31,258 nt of DNA from Candidatus Poribacteria bacterium (GCA_965205025.1 CBDBFU010000022.1:1-31258), one strand, 5' to 3'; positions 353 to 27,048 are shown, counted from the stretch's first letter. The notes: generated by a model from the letters alone, not told the origin. Translations and numbers: made by a program.

Positions 353-423
353 TATTTATAACTTTAGTTGTATTATGGTTTGGTTTTCTTCAATAATTTC
401 AGTTAACAGTTAATATGCCTGAA

Positions 424-458
424 TCGCGGATTACGCGGATTTCGCGGATTGCGCGGAT
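424..458. repeat. 9-bp tandem repeat (NCGCGGATT x ~4)
   Basis: tcgcggatt acgcggatt tcgcggatt gcgcggat; degenerate relative at ~675-696. Confidence 0.85.
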
Positions 459-486
459 ATGAGTGATTTTAGAATGTAAGGAGTAA

Positions 487-20058: not shown

Positions 20059-23000
20059 TTATTGGTTATCAATTGTATACCGAATCACTCCCTGTCCATC
20101 TGTTCCAACATAGATCGTATCCCCTTCAACATCAAAACACATCACTGGATATGGAATTTCTGATGTAATCTGCTTCCATTTACCAGTGTTGTGATTTAGT
20201 TCATATATTATTTGGTTTGATTCCCCGTAGATAATACTATTATCCACTACTAATCTCCCAATTATGAGTGATGTTTCTTCTTCATCGGTCAATGTAAGCC
20301 ATTCAGTTCCATTACCTGATACAACAACACCCTTATTGGTTGCAACATAGACAAAGTTCCCATTAAAAATAACTGACATAATATAATCCACTGCAAATGG
20401 TAAGTTCTTAGTAACATCAACCCAACTTGTTCCTTCATCAGTTGATTTCATGAGATGTCCATCCAGTTTTCCAACGTATACTGTATCATCTGAAACTGCT
20501 AATTTAAAGCCAATTCTATCAAAAAAGTTATTAGTGGACCAAGCAACTTCGGTAGAATCTTTTGTGTCCAATAGGTTTGTGTCATACCATTCTGAATCAC
20601 CGTCTTTCCATCTCCACAACCTGTGATTGTATTCAGCATAATATGTGGCATCTGTCAAAAATAAACTACCGAGCATAGAGACATAATATTTACCTTTCCC
20701 GTGTGGAATTGAGAATAATTGTCTTCTCATTTCAGGGGGTTGATCCATTCTACCTTTGTGTGGATCAAATGTTGGAATAGTAGGTAAATTAGACAGATGT
20801 TGAAGAGTTTTATCTGTATGAGTAAGTTTATATAAGCGTGGAGTTCCTATTTTATCGTCTCTTCCAAACAACTTCCCATTAGATTCAACAATACCGGTAA
20901 TGTATCCAGTATCGCCATGAACCGATGTCCAAGTATCGCCTTTGTCATTGGAATTGACAAGACCTGTATTTGTATTAGCATAGAGTGTACCATTTACTAC
21001 GACTAATTCTCTAATGTTTCTGTTTACAACTCCAGTATTGAACAAATGCCATGTATTCCCTTCGTCAATAGACCGGTGTATCCCATTCGGTCCACATCTG
21101 TAGAAGTTATTATCTGTTATTACTACTTTACGCGTCCAGTTTCTTATATCCATTTCATACTCTAATAATTTCCAAGTCTTACCTGAATTGTTTGAATAAT
21201 ACTGTTTTAATCCGTCGATAAGAAGTAGTTTTTCACCTGAAATAGTACAGTTGAGAGTTGTATCTATAGATTCTGTAAAAGGTAATTCATTTGTTTTCTT
21301 GCGATCTTTCTTACCCATTGGAAATATATTGGATAGTATACTACGTGTTTGATCTTTCTCAATATTTTTTGGGTTTGGTGTTATAGCTTCCCATGTGCTA
21401 CCTTTGTCCACTGATTTAAATAGAGACCAAGACCAGGCAGGTGTGTTACCTCTACTTCTTATAAATCCTGATCTTGGTTTATTAACTATTGAAATTCCAA
21501 ATCCACTACCTGGGTATGGATCACTTGGATCATTGCTTCTTGCAGCATATAGTCTGTTTTCTGTAACTACCAAATTGAATATTGGCAGTGTGTTCTCTTC
21601 CAGATGATTTTCTTTGATAGACAAATGCTCCCAAATGCGTTTCTTTAAACGATATAATCCATTATCAGTTCCTATGAACACTGTGTTTTTTAGTGCAGCA
21701 ATAGATAGAATACGTCTTTCCATTACACCTTCAAAAAGTGGTGTCCAAGAATCACCTGCCTTTTCATATCGATAAACGCCTTTCTTGTAAGCAAGATATA
21801 TGGTTTTATCACTTTGGTCTTCAGGGAATCCATCTGTAATTACCATACCGATAAGTTGCCCTTTTATACGTTCACACACCACATTCCATGTCACACCTCT
21901 ATCTATCGAAGACAATACTCCTGTACTATTTGCAGTATATAGAGCATTCTTATGCTCTATGATCAAATTTGAATTCCATGGATTGCTACTTGTTAAATCA
22001 GGATGTGAAGGATCAATCCTTGAATTAATCAGCTTCCACGTCGACCTATCATCTGAGAGTCTATATAGATCGTTCTTAGTAATCGCATACAAATCACCAC
22101 GGGTTGTCTTATAGAGCGTATTTACTCTGCCGCCTTCTGGACCTATAATTCCACTCCATTGTCCTTTAATTTCCCCTGCCTGATCTTCATCAGTTTTTCC
22201 TGCACCAAAAATTGATGTTGGTGGATTTTGTATTATATTAGTATTCTTTTCACTTACTACTGTTTTTCCCGTCTGACGTTTGATTACAGGTTTTGTATTG
22301 ACATCCATTAAGACTTTGGCGTCAACAATTTCAATCATTGATTCTGAATTAGCGTTTAGACTATAAGGTTGTTGGAACTGTAATAGGTGCTGCGAACCTA
22401 CTCCTAACAATAATAATAGAAAACAAATTGCAGTCACTGCCGATAACCCTAATGGGACTAAAGGTTTACTCCCCGATGAAGAAACTGGGTTAAGCTGAGA
22501 GATTTGCTTCATAATATTCTCTGACATCTGTCTTGGCAATTGAAAACTACTAAGATATTCTTTAATCATGGCTTCTTCCTTTTCTAATCGTTTTCGTGCA
22601 CGATGCAACCGACTCAGAACTGTGTTAATAGATACACCTAAGAACTTGCTTATATCTTCACAAGTCATCTCTCCTATATAGTGTAGGTTCATTACCGTAC
22701 GTTCACTTTCCTGGAGTTTACTGAGAAGTTTCTGAATGATATCGCGCCGTTTTTGGTCTACATCCTCTTCGCGTTGACGATTCATATAATCGGAATAATA
22801 TGCCTGATCTAATTCAACAGGATCTGTATCTTCTAAAGATTCTAAGACTACACGTTTCTTTCGGTGCCAGTTCTTACACTTATTGCTTGTAAGGACATAG
22901 AGCCATCCTTCAAATCGGTTATGGTGTGTAAGTGAGTTAAGTTTTTTATAGGCAGTAAGGAAAGTGTCCTGAGCAATTTCTTGTGCAATATGATAATCAC

Positions 23001-23118
23001 CAATTTTCTGCCACGCTAAAGCGTGAACCTGTTTTTGGTATTTTTCCACAAGCATAGTAAACGCTTGTTGGTCACCTTCTAAAGTACGTTGAATTAATTC
23101 AGTATCATTATTCTGCAT
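20059..23118 (-). CDS. ECF sigma factor fused to a TM helix and an Asp-box beta-propeller
   Basis: sigma2 (GDQQAFTMLVEKY, AQEIAQDTFL, FEGWLY), sigma4 (LQESERTV, ISKFLGVSINTVLSRLHRARKRL), TM LGLSAVTAICFLLLLLGVG, repeats SIDRGVTW, SVDKGSTW, SIDEGNTW, SNDKGDTW, STDEGTSW. Confidence 0.92.
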   Translation of the reverse strand: MQNNDTELIQRTLEGDQQAFTMLVEKYQKQVHALAWQKIGDYHIAQEIAQDTFLTAYKKLNSLTHHNRFEGWLYVLTSNKCKNWHRKKRVVLESLEDTDPVELDQAYYSDYMNRQREEDVDQKRRDIIQKLLSKLQESERTVMNLHYIGEMTCEDISKFLGVSINTVLSRLHRARKRLEKEEAMIKEYLSSFQLPRQMSENIMKQISQLNPVSSSGSKPLVPLGLSAVTAICFLLLLLGVGSQHLLQFQQPYSLNANSESMIEIVDAKVLMDVNTKPVIKRQTGKTVVSEKNTNIIQNPPTSIFGAGKTDEDQAGEIKGQWSGIIGPEGGRVNTLYKTTRGDLYAITKNDLYRLSDDRSTWKLINSRIDPSHPDLTSSNPWNSNLIIEHKNALYTANSTGVLSSIDRGVTWNVVCERIKGQLIGMVITDGFPEDQSDKTIYLAYKKGVYRYEKAGDSWTPLFEGVMERRILSIAALKNTVFIGTDNGLYRLKKRIWEHLSIKENHLEENTLPIFNLVVTENRLYAARSNDPSDPYPGSGFGISIVNKPRSGFIRSRGNTPAWSWSLFKSVDKGSTWEAITPNPKNIEKDQTRSILSNIFPMGKKDRKKTNELPFTESIDTTLNCTISGEKLLLIDGLKQYYSNNSGKTWKLLEYEMDIRNWTRKVVITDNNFYRCGPNGIHRSIDEGNTWHLFNTGVVNRNIRELVVVNGTLYANTNTGLVNSNDKGDTWTSVHGDTGYITGIVESNGKLFGRDDKIGTPRLYKLTHTDKTLQHLSNLPTIPTFDPHKGRMDQPPEMRRQLFSIPHGKGKYYVSMLGSLFLTDATYYAEYNHRLWRWKDGDSEWYDTNLLDTKDSTEVAWSTNNFFDRIGFKLAVSDDTVYVGKLDGHLMKSTDEGTSWVDVTKNLPFAVDYIMSVIFNGNFVYVATNKGVVVSGNGTEWLTLTDEEETSLIIGRLVVDNSIIYGESNQIIYELNHNTGKWKQITSEIPYPVMCFDVEGDTIYVGTDGQGVIRYTIDNQ

Positions 23119-23152
23119 TACACACCATCACATAAGTAGCTCTTTTAAATTA

Positions 23153-23181
23153 AAGACACAATTTTGAGACGAATTATTGCA
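23153..23181 (-). promoter_or_regulatory. putative ECF sigma promoter (autoregulatory)
   Basis: TGCAAT-aattcgtctcaaaattg-TGTCTT, ~35 nt upstream of the start codon. Confidence 0.55.
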
Positions 23182-23293
23182 TAATTTGAAAGAATTTTGA
23201 TTTTGTAGTTTTCTTTTAGAGAATAGAAATTGATATGTAATCCATAATTTACCATATTCAATTATAGATTATATATCAATTTGATTGTTGATT

Positions 23294-23324
23294 AAAAGAA
23301 AAGCGAGGTTTCTCGCCTCGCTTT
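23294..23324 (-). terminator. intrinsic terminator
   Basis: Minus strand AAAGCGAGG-CGAGAAA-CCTCGCTTT followed by TCTTTT, between the two ECF genes. Confidence 0.7.
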
Positions 23325-23394
23325 GGATAATTACAACTCTAACTTTTTGTATCGTAGTAAATATACTATAGTTTGGATAGTTTTAAGTGATACA

Positions 23395-23957
23395 CCTTTC
23401 ACCCCTCATGAAGTTAAAGAATTTATTCGGGTAATTTCCAGTTTCTTGTAGAATCCGGTGCGGTTAGGAAACCGCACTATAGGCGTCAATTTAGTGGTTT
23501 TCCCAGGCCGGTAGGTGCGATTTCCTAATCGCACCATAGGCATCAATTTAGGATACACCTTTCGCCCCGCTGGGGCTTAGTGTTTTGTGTTTATTACGTT
23601 TTCTACAAACCTTTCGCCCCGCTAGGGCTTGGGATATTGGTGATAACCACTTCTATAGACATTCCGTCCCTACGGGACTCAAAACCAATAAATCATAGTC
23701 TAAATTGACGCTAATAGTGCGATTTCCTAATCGCACTGGATCCTTCGCGAAAAACTTTATGAACGCAATTGGAACAAACCCGGTTCGGTTAGGAAACCGA
23801 ACCTACCGACCTGAAATTTATAGCGTACTTCTCCTTAAATTGACGCCTATGAATCAACGGTATGAATGCTATTTAGCATTCCCCGTGGTTAGGAAACCGC
23901 ACCTACCAGCTCTGGGTCCAAATTGCCTATTTTATTTTTTTAACTTCATCTGGGGCT
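23395..23957. mobile_element. multi-level nested MITE/REP composite
   Basis: Split hairpin CCTTTCACCCCTC / CTGGGGCT encloses an A-like element (ATGAAGTTAAA 23408 ... TTTAACTTCAT 23949), which encloses D (23478-23851), which encloses a second D (23535-23716) containing three more hairpin repeats; B unit at 23851-23885. Confidence 0.85.
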
Positions 23958-24099
23958 ATGCTTTGGTCTAACAGATTTTACTTTTTTTAGAGTTGGATTA
24001 GTGCGAGAAAAGTGGCAAAACCGGAAACACATTGAAAATAGGATGAGTACTTTTCAGAAAATGTCCATACTATAGTAAATATAATATGGACAAATTGTC

Positions 24100-27048
24100 T
24101 TATTCGTCAAGTGTGAATCGAAATACTCCACCACCTTGTGTTCCAACATAAATTGTACTATCATCAACATCAAGACAGGTAACTTGATAAGGGATTTCAG
24201 GTGTAACTTGCTTCCATATTCTTGAATTTTCTTCTATCAGATACACTTTCTTTCCTACAAGTCCAAATAATCTTGTACCGTCCACATTTAGTTTATCTGC
24301 AACAATAGGTATACCATCAGTATCCATGAGTACATCCCAGTCAATGCCATTTTCTGATAGGACGACACCTTTATCAGTTGAAACATAGATAGTATTTCCC
24401 AGAATAGTAATTGTTTTGAATTGATTGACAGACCATGGAAGATTGTCAGTTATATCTTTCCATGTTTCACCCTCATCAACTGACTGCATCAGATGACCAT
24501 TTCTTTTACCGACATACACAGTATTACCTATCACAGCAAATTTACTATTTGTTAAAAATACCAGTCCATGAGTATCTGTAAGTTCATAGTAATTTTTTCC
24601 ATCCAATATTTTGGTATCATACCATTTTGATGTACCAGGTTTCCATCGGTAAAGACTGTCATTATATTCTATATAGATAGCAGCATCACTAACCGCAATA
24701 CCCCATTTTGAAGGAGCAATTTCTATCCAATATTTTTCTGAATAATTAATGTCAGGACCAGATGATTTTCCTTTTTTAGATTTCCGTAGAATATCCGATC
24801 TGTCATTTATCGGGATCCAACGATTGTCCTTTTCGTTAATAGCCAATTCTGGGATAGCTGGGACTAAGACAAATTTCTTTTCTTGACTTGAAAAATGCAT
24901 GAGTCTTCTGTCTGCATTTATCCGATAGAACTTCCCATCAGAACCTTTAATTATATTCTTTACATTTGCTTCAGATAGAATAGATGTCCACGATTCACCT
25001 TTATCATTTGAAGCAAAAAGTCCTGTATCTACATAAGCATAAATTGTATTGTCTATTGTTACTAAATTGTTGATATGTGTTCCAATCAATCCAAAATTGA
25101 ATTTTTGCCATGACTTACCACCGTTCATTGTACGATGAATTCCATGTATACCACATTTGAAAAAAGTATCAGTATTTAACATGACAGCATCAGTTGTATT
25201 GTAAAAGTGTGCATGATTACCAGTATCATAAGTCCAATCTTCACCTTCGTTTTCTGAATAATAATTCATTCCTTGTACTATAATTACCTTTTTACCTGCA
25301 GCAACAATCTTAATATTGGGATTAGAGTTATTATATCTATTCTTCATCAGGTTTTCTCTTGGTTGCATTAAATTCCAAGAATTACCACCGTCAATCGAAC
25401 GGTAAAAGAAACAACTGGAATCACTTAATGTGGAAAAAGTAATGTATTGACCATACTTTTGTGTGATTATATTACCAACTGCGACGTATATTCGATTTCC
25501 AGAAACTGTTAAGTCGAGAATCGACCAAGTGTTATTTTTCATTTCTGTATTGTCAAATGTAATTAATTCCCAGTTTTTATCATTTAGACGATAGAGTCCT
25601 TGGTCTGTTCCTGCGAATATAGTTTTTTCAACAGTTGCCATAGAACGGATTTTCTTATCAATTAAACCTTCCCGTAAGGGTGTCCAAGTGTTTCCCATAT
25701 CAACAGTACGGATGATCCTATCTGGTAGTGCAAGATAAATTACTACTTCAGCCGCTGTTTCTGAAATACTGTCAGTAATCTCAATGCCAACAGGGAATCC
25801 CTTAGGATGGGAACAAAGTGTTTTCCAAGTTTCTCCTCTGTCTAATGAAGTCAATATTTCATTGTTAGTGGCTATAAATAGAATGTCATTTCGTTCTGTT
25901 ACAGGCCACCACTTCATAGGATTCTCATTTGAAGTAGTAAATGGATCATTGAATTTATATACATGTATCCATCTATTACCGTCATCCGAAAGTCTATAAA
26001 GATGGTTTCGAGCTCCCGCATATATGTCACCACGAGTTGATACGAAAAGGTCTGAGACTCTACCACCTTCCGGACCTTTTGTCTGAATCCACTGTGAATC
26101 GGAGTGTGTTGCCTTATCTTGATTGTCTTGTGTTATATCGTCAACAACATCAGTTTTCTGGTTTTTACCATTGTTCTGAGCAGTTATATCAGATCCTCCA
26201 ATTAACTTCTTAACAACTGGTTTTGATGGTAAATCCAATACAATTTGTGCATCAACAATCTCTATAGTATTTTTTGATGAACCGGTTAAATTGTAAGGTT
26301 GCTGAAATTGTAGCTGCGGTTGTGAACCAATTCCCATAAGCAGTAGAACCAATACAACAGATATAGAAGAAATCGCCAATGGTATAAGGGGTTTGCTTCC
26401 AACCGGAGGAGTCGATGGAATTTGATTTTTTACCTTCTTCATAATGTTATCAGCCATGTGTGATGGTAATTTAAAACTATTAAGGTTTTCTATGATTAAA
26501 TCTTCGTCCTTTTTCAATCTGTTCCGAGCACGATTCAGCCTACTTTTAATAGTATTCTGAGAGACACCAAGAAACTTGCTAATAGATTCACATGTCATTT
26601 CCCCAAGATAATGAAGTGTCATTACAGTTCGTTCACTTTCCGGTAATTTATTCAGCAATTTTCTCACCAAGAGTCGACGAGATTCATCTTCATCCAATTT
26701 ACGCTGTTCTTCAACATATTCATTGTATGACACTTGATCCACCTCTTTAGTATCAACGGTCTCTAAGGATTGTATGGGTAAATGATTCTTACGTAACCAA
26801 TCTGCACATAGACGTATGGCAATTACATATAACCACCCAGAAAACATCTTATGGTCTTTCAAAGTGTCCAGTCTTTGATATGCCTTTAGAAAAGCATCCT
26901 GCGTAATTTCCTGGGCAATATGAAAGTCCCCAATCTTTTGCCATATCAAGGCATGCAGTCCTTTTTGGTATTTCTCTACTAAAGTAGTAAATGCTGCTTG
27001 GTTTCCGTCTAATATCTGCTGAATCAATTCAACATCTTTCATTTTCAT
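24100..27048 (-). CDS. ECF sigma factor fused to a TM helix and an Asp-box beta-propeller (paralogue)
   Basis: GNQAAFTTLVEKY, AQEITQDAFL, LPESERTV, FLGVSQNTIKSRLNRARNRL, TM LAISSISVVLVLLLMGIG, repeats SLDRGETW, TVDMGNTW, SIDGGNSW, SNDKGESW, SVDEGETW; GGAGG RBS. Confidence 0.92.
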   Translation of the reverse strand: MKMKDVELIQQILDGNQAAFTTLVEKYQKGLHALIWQKIGDFHIAQEITQDAFLKAYQRLDTLKDHKMFSGWLYVIAIRLCADWLRKNHLPIQSLETVDTKEVDQVSYNEYVEEQRKLDEDESRRLLVRKLLNKLPESERTVMTLHYLGEMTCESISKFLGVSQNTIKSRLNRARNRLKKDEDLIIENLNSFKLPSHMADNIMKKVKNQIPSTPPVGSKPLIPLAISSISVVLVLLLMGIGSQPQLQFQQPYNLTGSSKNTIEIVDAQIVLDLPSKPVVKKLIGGSDITAQNNGKNQKTDVVDDITQDNQDKATHSDSQWIQTKGPEGGRVSDLFVSTRGDIYAGARNHLYRLSDDGNRWIHVYKFNDPFTTSNENPMKWWPVTERNDILFIATNNEILTSLDRGETWKTLCSHPKGFPVGIEITDSISETAAEVVIYLALPDRIIRTVDMGNTWTPLREGLIDKKIRSMATVEKTIFAGTDQGLYRLNDKNWELITFDNTEMKNNTWSILDLTVSGNRIYVAVGNIITQKYGQYITFSTLSDSSCFFYRSIDGGNSWNLMQPRENLMKNRYNNSNPNIKIVAAGKKVIIVQGMNYYSENEGEDWTYDTGNHAHFYNTTDAVMLNTDTFFKCGIHGIHRTMNGGKSWQKFNFGLIGTHINNLVTIDNTIYAYVDTGLFASNDKGESWTSILSEANVKNIIKGSDGKFYRINADRRLMHFSSQEKKFVLVPAIPELAINEKDNRWIPINDRSDILRKSKKGKSSGPDINYSEKYWIEIAPSKWGIAVSDAAIYIEYNDSLYRWKPGTSKWYDTKILDGKNYYELTDTHGLVFLTNSKFAVIGNTVYVGKRNGHLMQSVDEGETWKDITDNLPWSVNQFKTITILGNTIYVSTDKGVVLSENGIDWDVLMDTDGIPIVADKLNVDGTRLFGLVGKKVYLIEENSRIWKQVTPEIPYQVTCLDVDDSTIYVGTQGGGVFRFTLDE

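Follow-up and report, generated by a model that had tools for sequence, protein, structure and literature searches.

The intergenic DNA described here lies in a contig of a Candidatus Poribacteria metagenome-assembled genome (MAG; GCA_965205025.1, CBDBFU010000022.1). The window is the whole contig, 31,258 bp long, and the genome comprises 5.66 Mb in 33 contigs with approximately 38% G+C. A spacer of 981 bp separates two paralogues encoded on the minus strand (20059-23118 and 24100-27048), and part of it is filled by a mosaic of hairpins and terminal inverted repeats. A reading made from the sequence alone had described positions 23395 to 23957 as four nested levels of transposase-free elements built inside a repetitive extragenic palindrome (REP) hairpin. 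Here we describe the structure of this mosaic, link its layers to insertion sequences (ISs) elsewhere in the genome, and argue that it was very probably made by hairpin-directed transposition of several non-autonomous families, most of them MITEs (transposable elements of the miniature inverted-repeat type). Contigs of the same genome are designated C with a number (the window is C22, and its copy of a repeat is W), other genomes G and other records L. G004 is a sister species, and G005 and G049 are two other species that were compared.

The features of the mosaic are listed in Table 1. Every base of 23362-23955 has 13-291 BLAST matches in the genome, and the flanks have one (single copy). The outermost hairpin is interrupted: ...CCTTTCACCCCTC runs up to 23407 and CTGGGGCT resumes at 23950-23957. 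The A-like MITE between these halves begins with ATGAAGTTAAAG... at 23408 and closes with ...TTTAACTTCAT at 23949, an inverted repeat identified by the repeat finder. Within it the termini of the outer D element, ATAGGCGTCAATTTA (23479-23493 vs 23836-23850), are complementary at 15/15 positions according to the same program, and those of the inner D element (23536-23550 and 23701-23715) are enclosed by identical 20-nt hairpins. The sequence and the repeat finder agree with all the coordinates given in the sequence-only reading, and the concentric termini it described are real nested insertions. The stack is deeper than four levels, however, as an outermost MITE, E (23366-24075), and a micro-element, H (23852-23884), had been missed.

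Table 1. Features of the nested mosaic, in window positions
Feature	Positions	Strand	Remarks
Left 8-nt direct repeat TAAATATA flanking E	23358..23365	.	Single copy at the orthologous G004 site
E, outermost MITE, 710 bp	23366..24075	+	Ends CTATAGTTTGGATAGTTTT... and ...AAAATGTCCATACTATAG; G004 is without the block
Left half of GCCCC-type REP-like hairpin, GATACACCTTTCACCCCTC, E cargo split by A	23389..23407	+	Intact in other E copies: CGCCCCTCTGGGGCT
A-like MITE, IS630 type, loaded with D(D) and H	23408..23949	+	Single-base (C) duplication, 23407 and 23950
Central 20-nt hairpin of A, GTGCGGTTAGGAAACCGCAC; left target-duplication copy of outer D	23458..23477	+	DNA fold -9.6 kcal/mol, z = -5.5
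Outer D, IS4-type MITE	23478..23851	+	Ends YATAGGCGTCAATTT; unloaded approximately 170 bp
Hairpin GTGCGATTTCCTAATCGCAC of outer D; left 20-bp target-duplication copy of inner D	23515..23534	+	20/20; -10.2 kcal/mol, z = -7.9
Inner D, IS4-type MITE, REP-cargo subfamily	23535..23716	+	Free-standing relatives C23:49182-49335, C18:7617-7773
REP-like hairpin 1, GCCCC type, inner D cargo	23558..23577	+	Intact form CCTTTCGCCCCGCTGGGGCT
REP-like hairpin 2, GCCCC type, inner D cargo	23610..23629	+	One mismatch in 3' arm (CTAGGGC)
REP hairpin 3, TATAGACATTCCGTCCCTACGGGACTCA, RAYT-flanking family, inner D cargo	23652..23682	+	Approximately 255 BLAST matches
Right 20-bp target-duplication copy of inner D	23717..23736	+	
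Second hairpin of outer D, GGTTCGGTTAGGAAACCGAACC, unoccupied here	23782..23803	+	Loop holds H in other copies, e.g. C7:228022
H micro-element AATCAACGGTATGAATGCTATTTAGCATTCCCC, at junction of outer D and right target copy	23852..23884	+	Fold z = -3.8
Right copy of A's duplicated 20-nt hairpin, 18 nt here	23885..23902	+	2 nt short beside H; C5 copy keeps full GTACGGTTAGGAAACCGCAC
Right half of split REP-like hairpin, CTGGGGCT	23950..23957	+	
Right 8-nt direct repeat TAAATATA of E	24076..24083	.	

The same families recur in the window, as had been reported, with ends of D at 800 and 9705, copies of H at 551, 749 and 837, and an A-type MITE at 500-645. The window indeed holds no transposase of these families. 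The elements are not orphans, however, as eight intact IS630-type and 11 intact IS4-type transposase genes with matching ends lie on other contigs. The termini are paired genome-wide (120 A, 57 D and 32 E pairs), and long copies with matching ends that encode a transposase were found in a 1241-bp IS630-type and a 1453-bp IS4-type IS. Related sequences are present in 26 of the 31 related genomes searched, among them 18/18 of the same genus.

The A-type MITEs share their ends (ATGAAGATTAATTTTTTAATTCGGTAA) with the 1241-bp IS (L017), which encodes a transposase of 384 aa (NCBIfam NF033545, 181.7 bits with a cut-off of 100; Pfam DDE_3 and helix-turn-helix domains). The eight full-length genes are identical. 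The A-like subfamily of the locus ends in ATGAAGTTAAAGAATTTATTCGGGTAA, similar to the intact IS and one indel apart. Sixty of the paired A elements measure 110-119 bp, 29 measure 140-149 bp, and seven are approximately 1240 bp long. Their two flanks form a perfect stem of 5 bp or more, no further than 3 nt from the ends, in 102 of the 120 pairs; such a stem was found at 92 of 5000 random positions. The base that precedes the element is repeated directly after it in 107/120, with a two-base match in 10/120. A TA target duplication, as in ordinary IS630 elements, was rejected, since TA...TA flanks occur in 1/120.

The stems that receive A elements comprise dozens of different sequences. The CACAAACT/AGTTTGTG hairpin, of which the genome has 137 uninterrupted copies, is the largest target and accounts for at least 43 of the 120 pairs. 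Both REP types, the hairpin of H and the one of 20 nt also receive A, as do many one-off palindromes. The uninterrupted loops of the main target (TCC, TTC, GGA, GAA, TTT and AAA) fit the filled forms TC|CC, TT|TC, GG|GA, GA|AA and TT|TT, assuming duplication of the middle base. Uninterrupted copies have either the 3-nt loops that fit the pre-insertion state or the 4-nt loops GGAA/TTCC (53/137), which are unmatched by filled sites. Among 14 full-length copies in G005 and G049, whose proteins are 62-82% identical, stems of at least 6 bp flank 12 and a 1-nt repeat is found in 12.

The D end motif is likewise found on the intact 1453-bp IS, which ends in ATAGGCGTCAATTT and encodes a DDE transposase of 439 aa (NCBIfam NF033592, 211.7 bits with a cut-off of 115; Pfam PF01609 DDE_Tnp_1, 89.7 bits). 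Ten of the 11 full-length genes are identical. The closest public relatives of this protein are in Candidatus Poribacteria MAG records. The D ends were paired by a stack method, which gave the 57 pairs. Direct repeats of 18-20 nt flank 30 of these (20 nt in 23, 19 nt in six and 18 nt in one), and mismatched flank pairs used as a control equalled the score in 2/1624. The duplicated sequence is the hairpin GTGCGGTTAGGAAACCGCAC or a variant in 19/30; in the other 11 it is a non-hairpin and mostly unique target, for example GTTTGTTGAATACCTAACAC. Duplicated sites tend to start with G(T/G) and to finish with (A/C)C. The 20-nt hairpins that flank a D element are identical within a pair and different between pairs. 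Splitting of a hairpin is confined to the A family; D leaves the hairpin unsplit and duplicates all 20 nt of it, as a target duplication of 19-20 bp.

The long duplication is not confined to this genome. Perfect 19-20-nt duplications were found at 30 of 41 loci in related MAG records; two of the remaining loci have flipped-loop hairpins, six have no duplication and three have no recognisable ends. In neither set is the duplication about one helix turn (approximately 10 bp), as the values are 18-20 nt in 30/57 pairs and 19-20 nt in 30/41 loci. A second IS4-type subfamily (58% protein identity; L038-L051, from related Poribacteria MAGs) also creates 19-20-bp duplications, located in the repeat GGTAGAGCG(n)CGAAACC. 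The two subfamilies share the long duplication and differ in target, so the long stagger predates the preference for hairpins.

The base of the stack is E. Its ends (CTATAGTTTGGACA...) occur 199 times in the genome and form the 32 pairs mentioned above. Unloaded copies of approximately 220 bp contain two GCCCC hairpins, with the REPs intact (C18:27225-27444 and C32:127746-127965). The REP hairpin in which the stack had been placed is indeed split by A, but it is not free-standing and is not the base level, being itself cargo of E. The orthologous site in G004, next to a protein 83% identical to that of the window, is empty. Positions 22900-23371 align to L063 (G004) 1013-1484 with 94.9% identity and 24079-24400 align to L063 1474-1795 with 92.2% identity, with an 11-bp overlap. 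Because both flanks align to adjoining L063 DNA, the whole E block is missing in G004. A TA duplication flanking E was considered and dropped, as with the perfect 8-nt repeat the locus matches the empty site without a gap. Perfect repeats of 8-10 nt were seen by eye at at least nine of the 32 E pairs. The E copy at C7:223961-224421 holds another nest, in which the third REP contains H and the loop of this H contains an A-like MITE.

Three hairpins had been reported within the inner D element, and these are present. They are not separate local insertions, as they are cargo of the MITE family, and at least one is a genuine REP. Three genes encoding Y1_Tnp proteins (PF01797, 100.5-100.7 bits) are found on C27. 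Upstream of each, TATAGACATTCCGTCCCTACGGGACTCA is present in two to five copies in reverse orientation, and downstream in two copies in forward orientation, which is the layout of REPs and REP-associated tyrosine transposase (RAYT) genes, and hairpin 23652-23682 belongs to the GTCCC-type family that flanks them. A conserved GTAG or CGTC head beside the stem is typical of REPs; the conserved 5' flank of this family reads TATAGACATTCC, and its assignment as a REP follows from the RAYT-flank layout. At least the GTCCC-type REPs are associated with a RAYT tyrosine transposase. The GCCCC hairpins (23395-23407 with 23950-23957, 23558 and 23610) have a similar build and are present near one RAYT copy (copy c). 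No RAYT gene of their own was seen in the genome, where the sole RAYT type found has GTCCC-type flanks. Within E, within the inner D and next to the RAYT gene alike, the REPs have a direct orientation, rather than being regularly spaced and alternating as in bacterial interspersed mosaic elements (BIMEs), and the units of the mosaic are elements bounded by terminal inverted repeats and accompanied by target duplications. Direct REP arrays with a period of approximately 85-90 nt and semi-conserved spacers lie upstream of each RAYT gene (C27:72300-72560, 86600-86930 and 53500-53640).

The micro-element H is a unit of 33-36 nt, (G/C)AATCAACGG-TATGAATGCnnnnGCATTC(C/A)CC, with 292 core matches in the genome. 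Its hairpin module pairs 7/7 in 230 of 263 modules, and five arm types with paired changes were found (GAATGCC 102, GAATGCT 91, GAATGAC 17, GAACGCC 15 and GAATGTC 4). Among the 184 complete copies, 32 are in loops of GCCCC REPs, 16 in loops of GTCCC REPs and 16 in the loop of the 20-nt hairpin. H has no terminal inverted repeats, and no long coding copies with H ends were present among the matches listed. Its left 8-mer is tandemly repeated up to five times, as is the 27-nt hairpin module. Next to the micro-elements, at window positions 420-460 and 690-760 and at many H sites genome-wide, there are short units of 7-8 nt in tandem (GCGGATT-like, GAATCAAG).

Forms that lack the inner element were found for every level. 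The A element without D (approximately 117 bp) occurs at C4:8256-8372, C29:21725-21840 and C32:92540-92656, and with one D at C27:95593-95987; a 230-bp D at C23:49097-49326 has flanks that read by eye as A-like. The outer D without the inner one (170 bp) is present at C7:146232-146401, C10:48318-48487 and C20:99640-99809. The G004 site is empty of E, and the paralogues provide the intermediates of the other levels.

The assembled block A(D(D)) is present at three loci, W, C5:46299-46808 and C14:338424-339067. The hosts differ (CACCCC TC|CT GGGG, CATCCC TC|CT GGG and ACTCC GC|CT GGAGT), and over the aligned bases identity to the window copy is 98.0% for C5 and 99.1% for C14. The D(D) part alone is 99.2% identical in C20 and 99.7% in C18; in C20:52707-53330 this pair is itself enclosed by a third element of D type. 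The block copies differ almost solely by the clean presence or absence of H, which is present in C14 and C20 and absent from the C5 paralogue, where the full hairpin is kept. Because the block is near-identical at three loci in three different split hairpins, A(D(D)) moves as a unit. This mobility means that the depth seen in the window needs only two local events, the arrival of E and of a loaded A. The earlier suggestion that such mosaics grow by repeated insertion is partly supported: the insertions are nested, but at this site the stack was probably not built layer by layer and mostly arrived ready-made.

These observations suggest how the families interact. The A-type MITEs are cut-down forms of the IS630-family IS, whose transposase would place them at hairpin tips with little regard to sequence; the central base of the loop is duplicated and the hairpin is split into two halves. 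As the target stems share no sequence, this transposase probably recognises a structure, either an extruded cruciform or a single-strand hairpin. The D-type MITEs are cut-down forms of the 1453-bp IS4-family IS, whose transposase would make a staggered cut of 19-20 bp in targets of the form G(T/G)...(A/C)C. Because this pattern is shown by the 20-nt hairpin in the middle of A- and D-type MITEs, the whole hairpin is copied on both sides of D, and the transposase dimer may span two helix turns. Judging from sequence, the intact IS630-type and IS4-type transposases presumably act on the ends of A and D. The REP hairpins travel as cargo of E-type and D-type MITEs and are targets of A and H in their turn, with H entering hairpin loops.

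Nests would deepen because each family carries landing pads for the others and finished nests still move as units. The idea that the miniature families use each other's hairpins as landing sites was already part of the sequence-only reading and is borne out by the target flanks of A, D and H. With A splitting tips, D copying hairpins, and E and the inner D carrying REPs, concentric termini are expected in which the outermost hairpin alone is split and the inner ones are doubled. In the simplest history, E would have inserted downstream of the stop codon of 24100-27048, and a ready-made A(D(D)) with H would have jumped into the loop of E's REP. The two events may have come in either order, and E may already have been loaded on arrival.

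Several observations weigh against hairpin-directed transposition as a complete account, and some of them point to dispersed identical hairpins acting as sites of homologous recombination or gene conversion, which would shuffle segments bounded by the same 20-nt hairpin into one another and need no transposase. The IS4-type copy at C28:219317-220769 has inverted versions of the hairpin as its flanks, two IS630-type copies in G049 (L088 and L090) lie between halves of different hairpins, and some H copies link a 5' arm from one hairpin family to a 3' arm from a different one. The junction ...CCCCGTGGTTAGGAAACC, in which H replaces the start of the 20-nt hairpin, is found in 45 of the 184 complete H copies, as if spreading as a block. 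Such chimeric flanks indicate that recombination between repeats also shapes the mosaics. Moreover, 18/120 A pairs have no flanking stem and 27/57 D pairs have no long duplication; many of the latter are probably wrong stack pairings or junctions that were rearranged or interrupted by H, and the outer D of the window is an example of an H-interrupted junction. The A-like subfamily, with its end indel relative to the intact IS, may need a transposase variant, and none was found. The evidence as a whole consists of static copies in MAGs, from which transposition itself is deduced. Recombination is nevertheless unlikely to be the main cause, as eleven D elements here and several in related genomes are flanked by unique non-hairpin repeats of 18-20 nt that recombination between repeats cannot produce, A elements lie in unique palindromes with a 1-nt repeat, and the terminal inverted repeats match those of intact insertion sequences.

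A local tandem duplication or a misassembly would also place similar termini around one another, and a repeat-rich MAG in 33 contigs, whose short-read counterparts break inside repeats, is open to such errors. Short-read contigs from two runs of one study, which may be the source sample, cover 22900-23428 and 23895/23900-24500 with zero differences. Because these contigs cross the outer junctions without differences, the outer junctions are not an assembly artefact. The inner repeats are a weaker point for transposition: no single short-read contig crosses them, no independent long molecule confirms the inner junctions, and in the public runs they are covered by short pieces only, which are assignable to any paralogue. 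Skips in the run contigs (e.g. 23514->23717, with 20 letters shared) match paralogous unloaded copies and are uninformative on alleles at the locus, and no contig bridging an empty E site was found in the public runs compared with 22900-24500. Runs with small word shares were excluded from all claims. The nested block is present at five loci with different flanks and with clean presence or absence of its sub-elements, and the termini are paired genome-wide with target duplications in families found in most of the related genomes. An artefact is thus largely refuted and highly improbable. It is equally improbable that the stack is one long composite MITE with original internal palindromes and without nested insertions. 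The movement of A(D(D)) as a unit today, in three copies at 98-99% identity, would agree with such an element, but the layers exist alone in many copies with their own duplications (A approximately 117 bp, outer D 170 bp, inner D approximately 155-180 bp), partly filled forms are found at C27:95593-95987 and, with flanks A-like by eye, at C23:49097-49326, and the flanking 20-nt hairpins match within each D pair and not between pairs.

At 23300-23324 the minus strand has a strong hairpin followed by a T-run (AAAGCGAGGCGAGAAACCTCGCTTT, then TCTTTT), resembling a terminator. In G004 this hairpin is approximately 70 bp downstream of the stop of the 24100-27048 counterpart, and here E pushes it 710 bp further, so that the block now separates the stop codon from the hairpin. 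The 3' end of the 24100-27048 gene either reads through the mosaic or ends at one of the mosaic hairpins. An Rfam scan of 23100-24200 at E values up to 1 returned a single chance-level match (Acido-Lenti-1, 15.6 bits with a gathering score of 37); the interval contains no known RNA family. The two flanking genes are tandem paralogues of approximately 1000 aa, in which an N-terminal extracytoplasmic function (ECF) sigma factor (regions 2 and 4) is fused to a large BNR/sortilin/DUF6242-like part. Their C-terminal 299 aa have 1-23 matches per genome in 40/40 genomes of the genus, often in tandem arrays.

The mosaic provides a concrete and testable account of how intergenic DNA grows, in which hairpins attract elements that bring further hairpins and the finished nests keep jumping. 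It also cautions annotators that a deep nest need not represent many local events. Two transposases with unusual geometry emerge from the analysis, an IS630/Tc1 relative that seemingly reads DNA shape and an IS4/Tn5 relative with a stagger of two turns. Both would be of interest for studies of target capture by DDE transposases and in the search for insertion tools with structural specificity.

REPs are documented targets of ISs from the IS3, IS110, IS4, IS256 and IS5 families, including IS1397 and ISKpn1 (IS3), IS621 and ISPpu9/10 (IS110) and ISRm22 (IS4) (Tobes & Pareja 2006, PMC1525189; Delihas 2011, PMC3184786). The elements described here resemble them in using extragenic palindromes as preferred sites and in the involvement of several IS families, IS4 among them. 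The REP-targeting ISs recognise one REP family by sequence, and IS630 is outside the five families listed there. In contrast, the IS630-type element of this genome enters dozens of unrelated hairpins, unique palindromes included, with a 1-nt duplication, and the IS4-type element duplicates the entire hairpin.

MITEs derived from IS630/Tc1-mariner elements, such as Nezha of cyanobacteria, Correia and RUP, are covered in PMC3184786 and PMC2817692. They are similar to the A-type MITEs in being short, in having IS630-like terminal inverted repeats from the same genome, in high copy number, in a stable fold and in filled and empty sites. Targeting of TA is a feature of mariner/Tc1 elements (PMC5481204). 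Whereas canonical IS630/Tc1-mariner elements duplicate TA, here a single base of any kind is duplicated at the tip of a hairpin. Members of the IS4 family duplicate approximately 10 bp, or one helix turn (De Palmenaer, Siguier & Mahillon 2008, PMC2266710), and the only long duplications in the consulted part of that survey are the variable repeats of 8-514 bp of IS1549 and IS1634, which are placed in the family IS1634. The D-related IS shares with the IS4 family a single-open-reading-frame DDE transposase that matches IS4 models, terminal inverted repeats that are short, and target preferences that are symmetric. Its duplication departs from this norm in being fixed at 19-20 bp, approximately two turns.

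REP/RAYT systems have been described as REPtrons, REPINs and BIMEs (Nunvar 2010, PMC2817692; Di Nocera 2013, PMC3733652; Bertels & Rainey 2011, PMC3116915), and REP dimers within longer palindromes are mentioned for some genomes by Di Nocera 2013 (PMC3733652). The abundant short GC-rich hairpins and the Y1 transposase genes between hairpins of inverted orientation are common to those systems and to this genome. Unlike the REPs of those systems, the REPs here are carried by DDE-type MITEs, and next to the RAYT gene they form direct arrays. The phylum is absent from the examples given in the consulted passages. Small dispersed repeats (SDRs) of Nostoc, reportedly described by Elhai and colleagues in 2008, are said to be hairpins of 21-27 nt with compensatory stem changes that occur in tandem heptamers and MITEs and are nested in one another. 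H would resemble such SDRs in these features, and differs in its length of 33-36 nt, in sequence and in phylum. The heptamer arrays said to surround cyanobacterial SDRs are similarly reminiscent of the 7-8-nt tandem repeats beside H.

Keyword searches of incomplete coverage found no description of a 20-bp duplication in the IS4 family or of hairpin or palindrome targeting by IS630 elements, and a keyword search for transposases and repeats of Poribacteria returned, as judged by titles, general genome papers only. Seen simply as a nest, the mosaic varies on what is already known, and its interest lies mainly in the transposases behind it, whose two target geometries contradict family norms as given in the consulted parts of the literature (PMC2266710 for IS4, and the TA targeting of IS630 relatives). 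A broader proposition, for which we consider the chances evenly balanced, is that in these Poribacteria-like genomes three unrelated systems (a Tc1/IS630-type DDE transposase, a Tn5/IS4-type DDE transposase and a Y1 RAYT) together with H all aim at hairpins. The two DDE transposases would do so with geometries undescribed for their families, a 1-bp stagger at the apex of hairpins irrespective of sequence, implying that structure is recognised, and a fixed 19-20-bp stagger that copies the whole hairpin. With hairpins as cargo in each family, the mutual landing pads would amount to a self-feeding repeat ecosystem.

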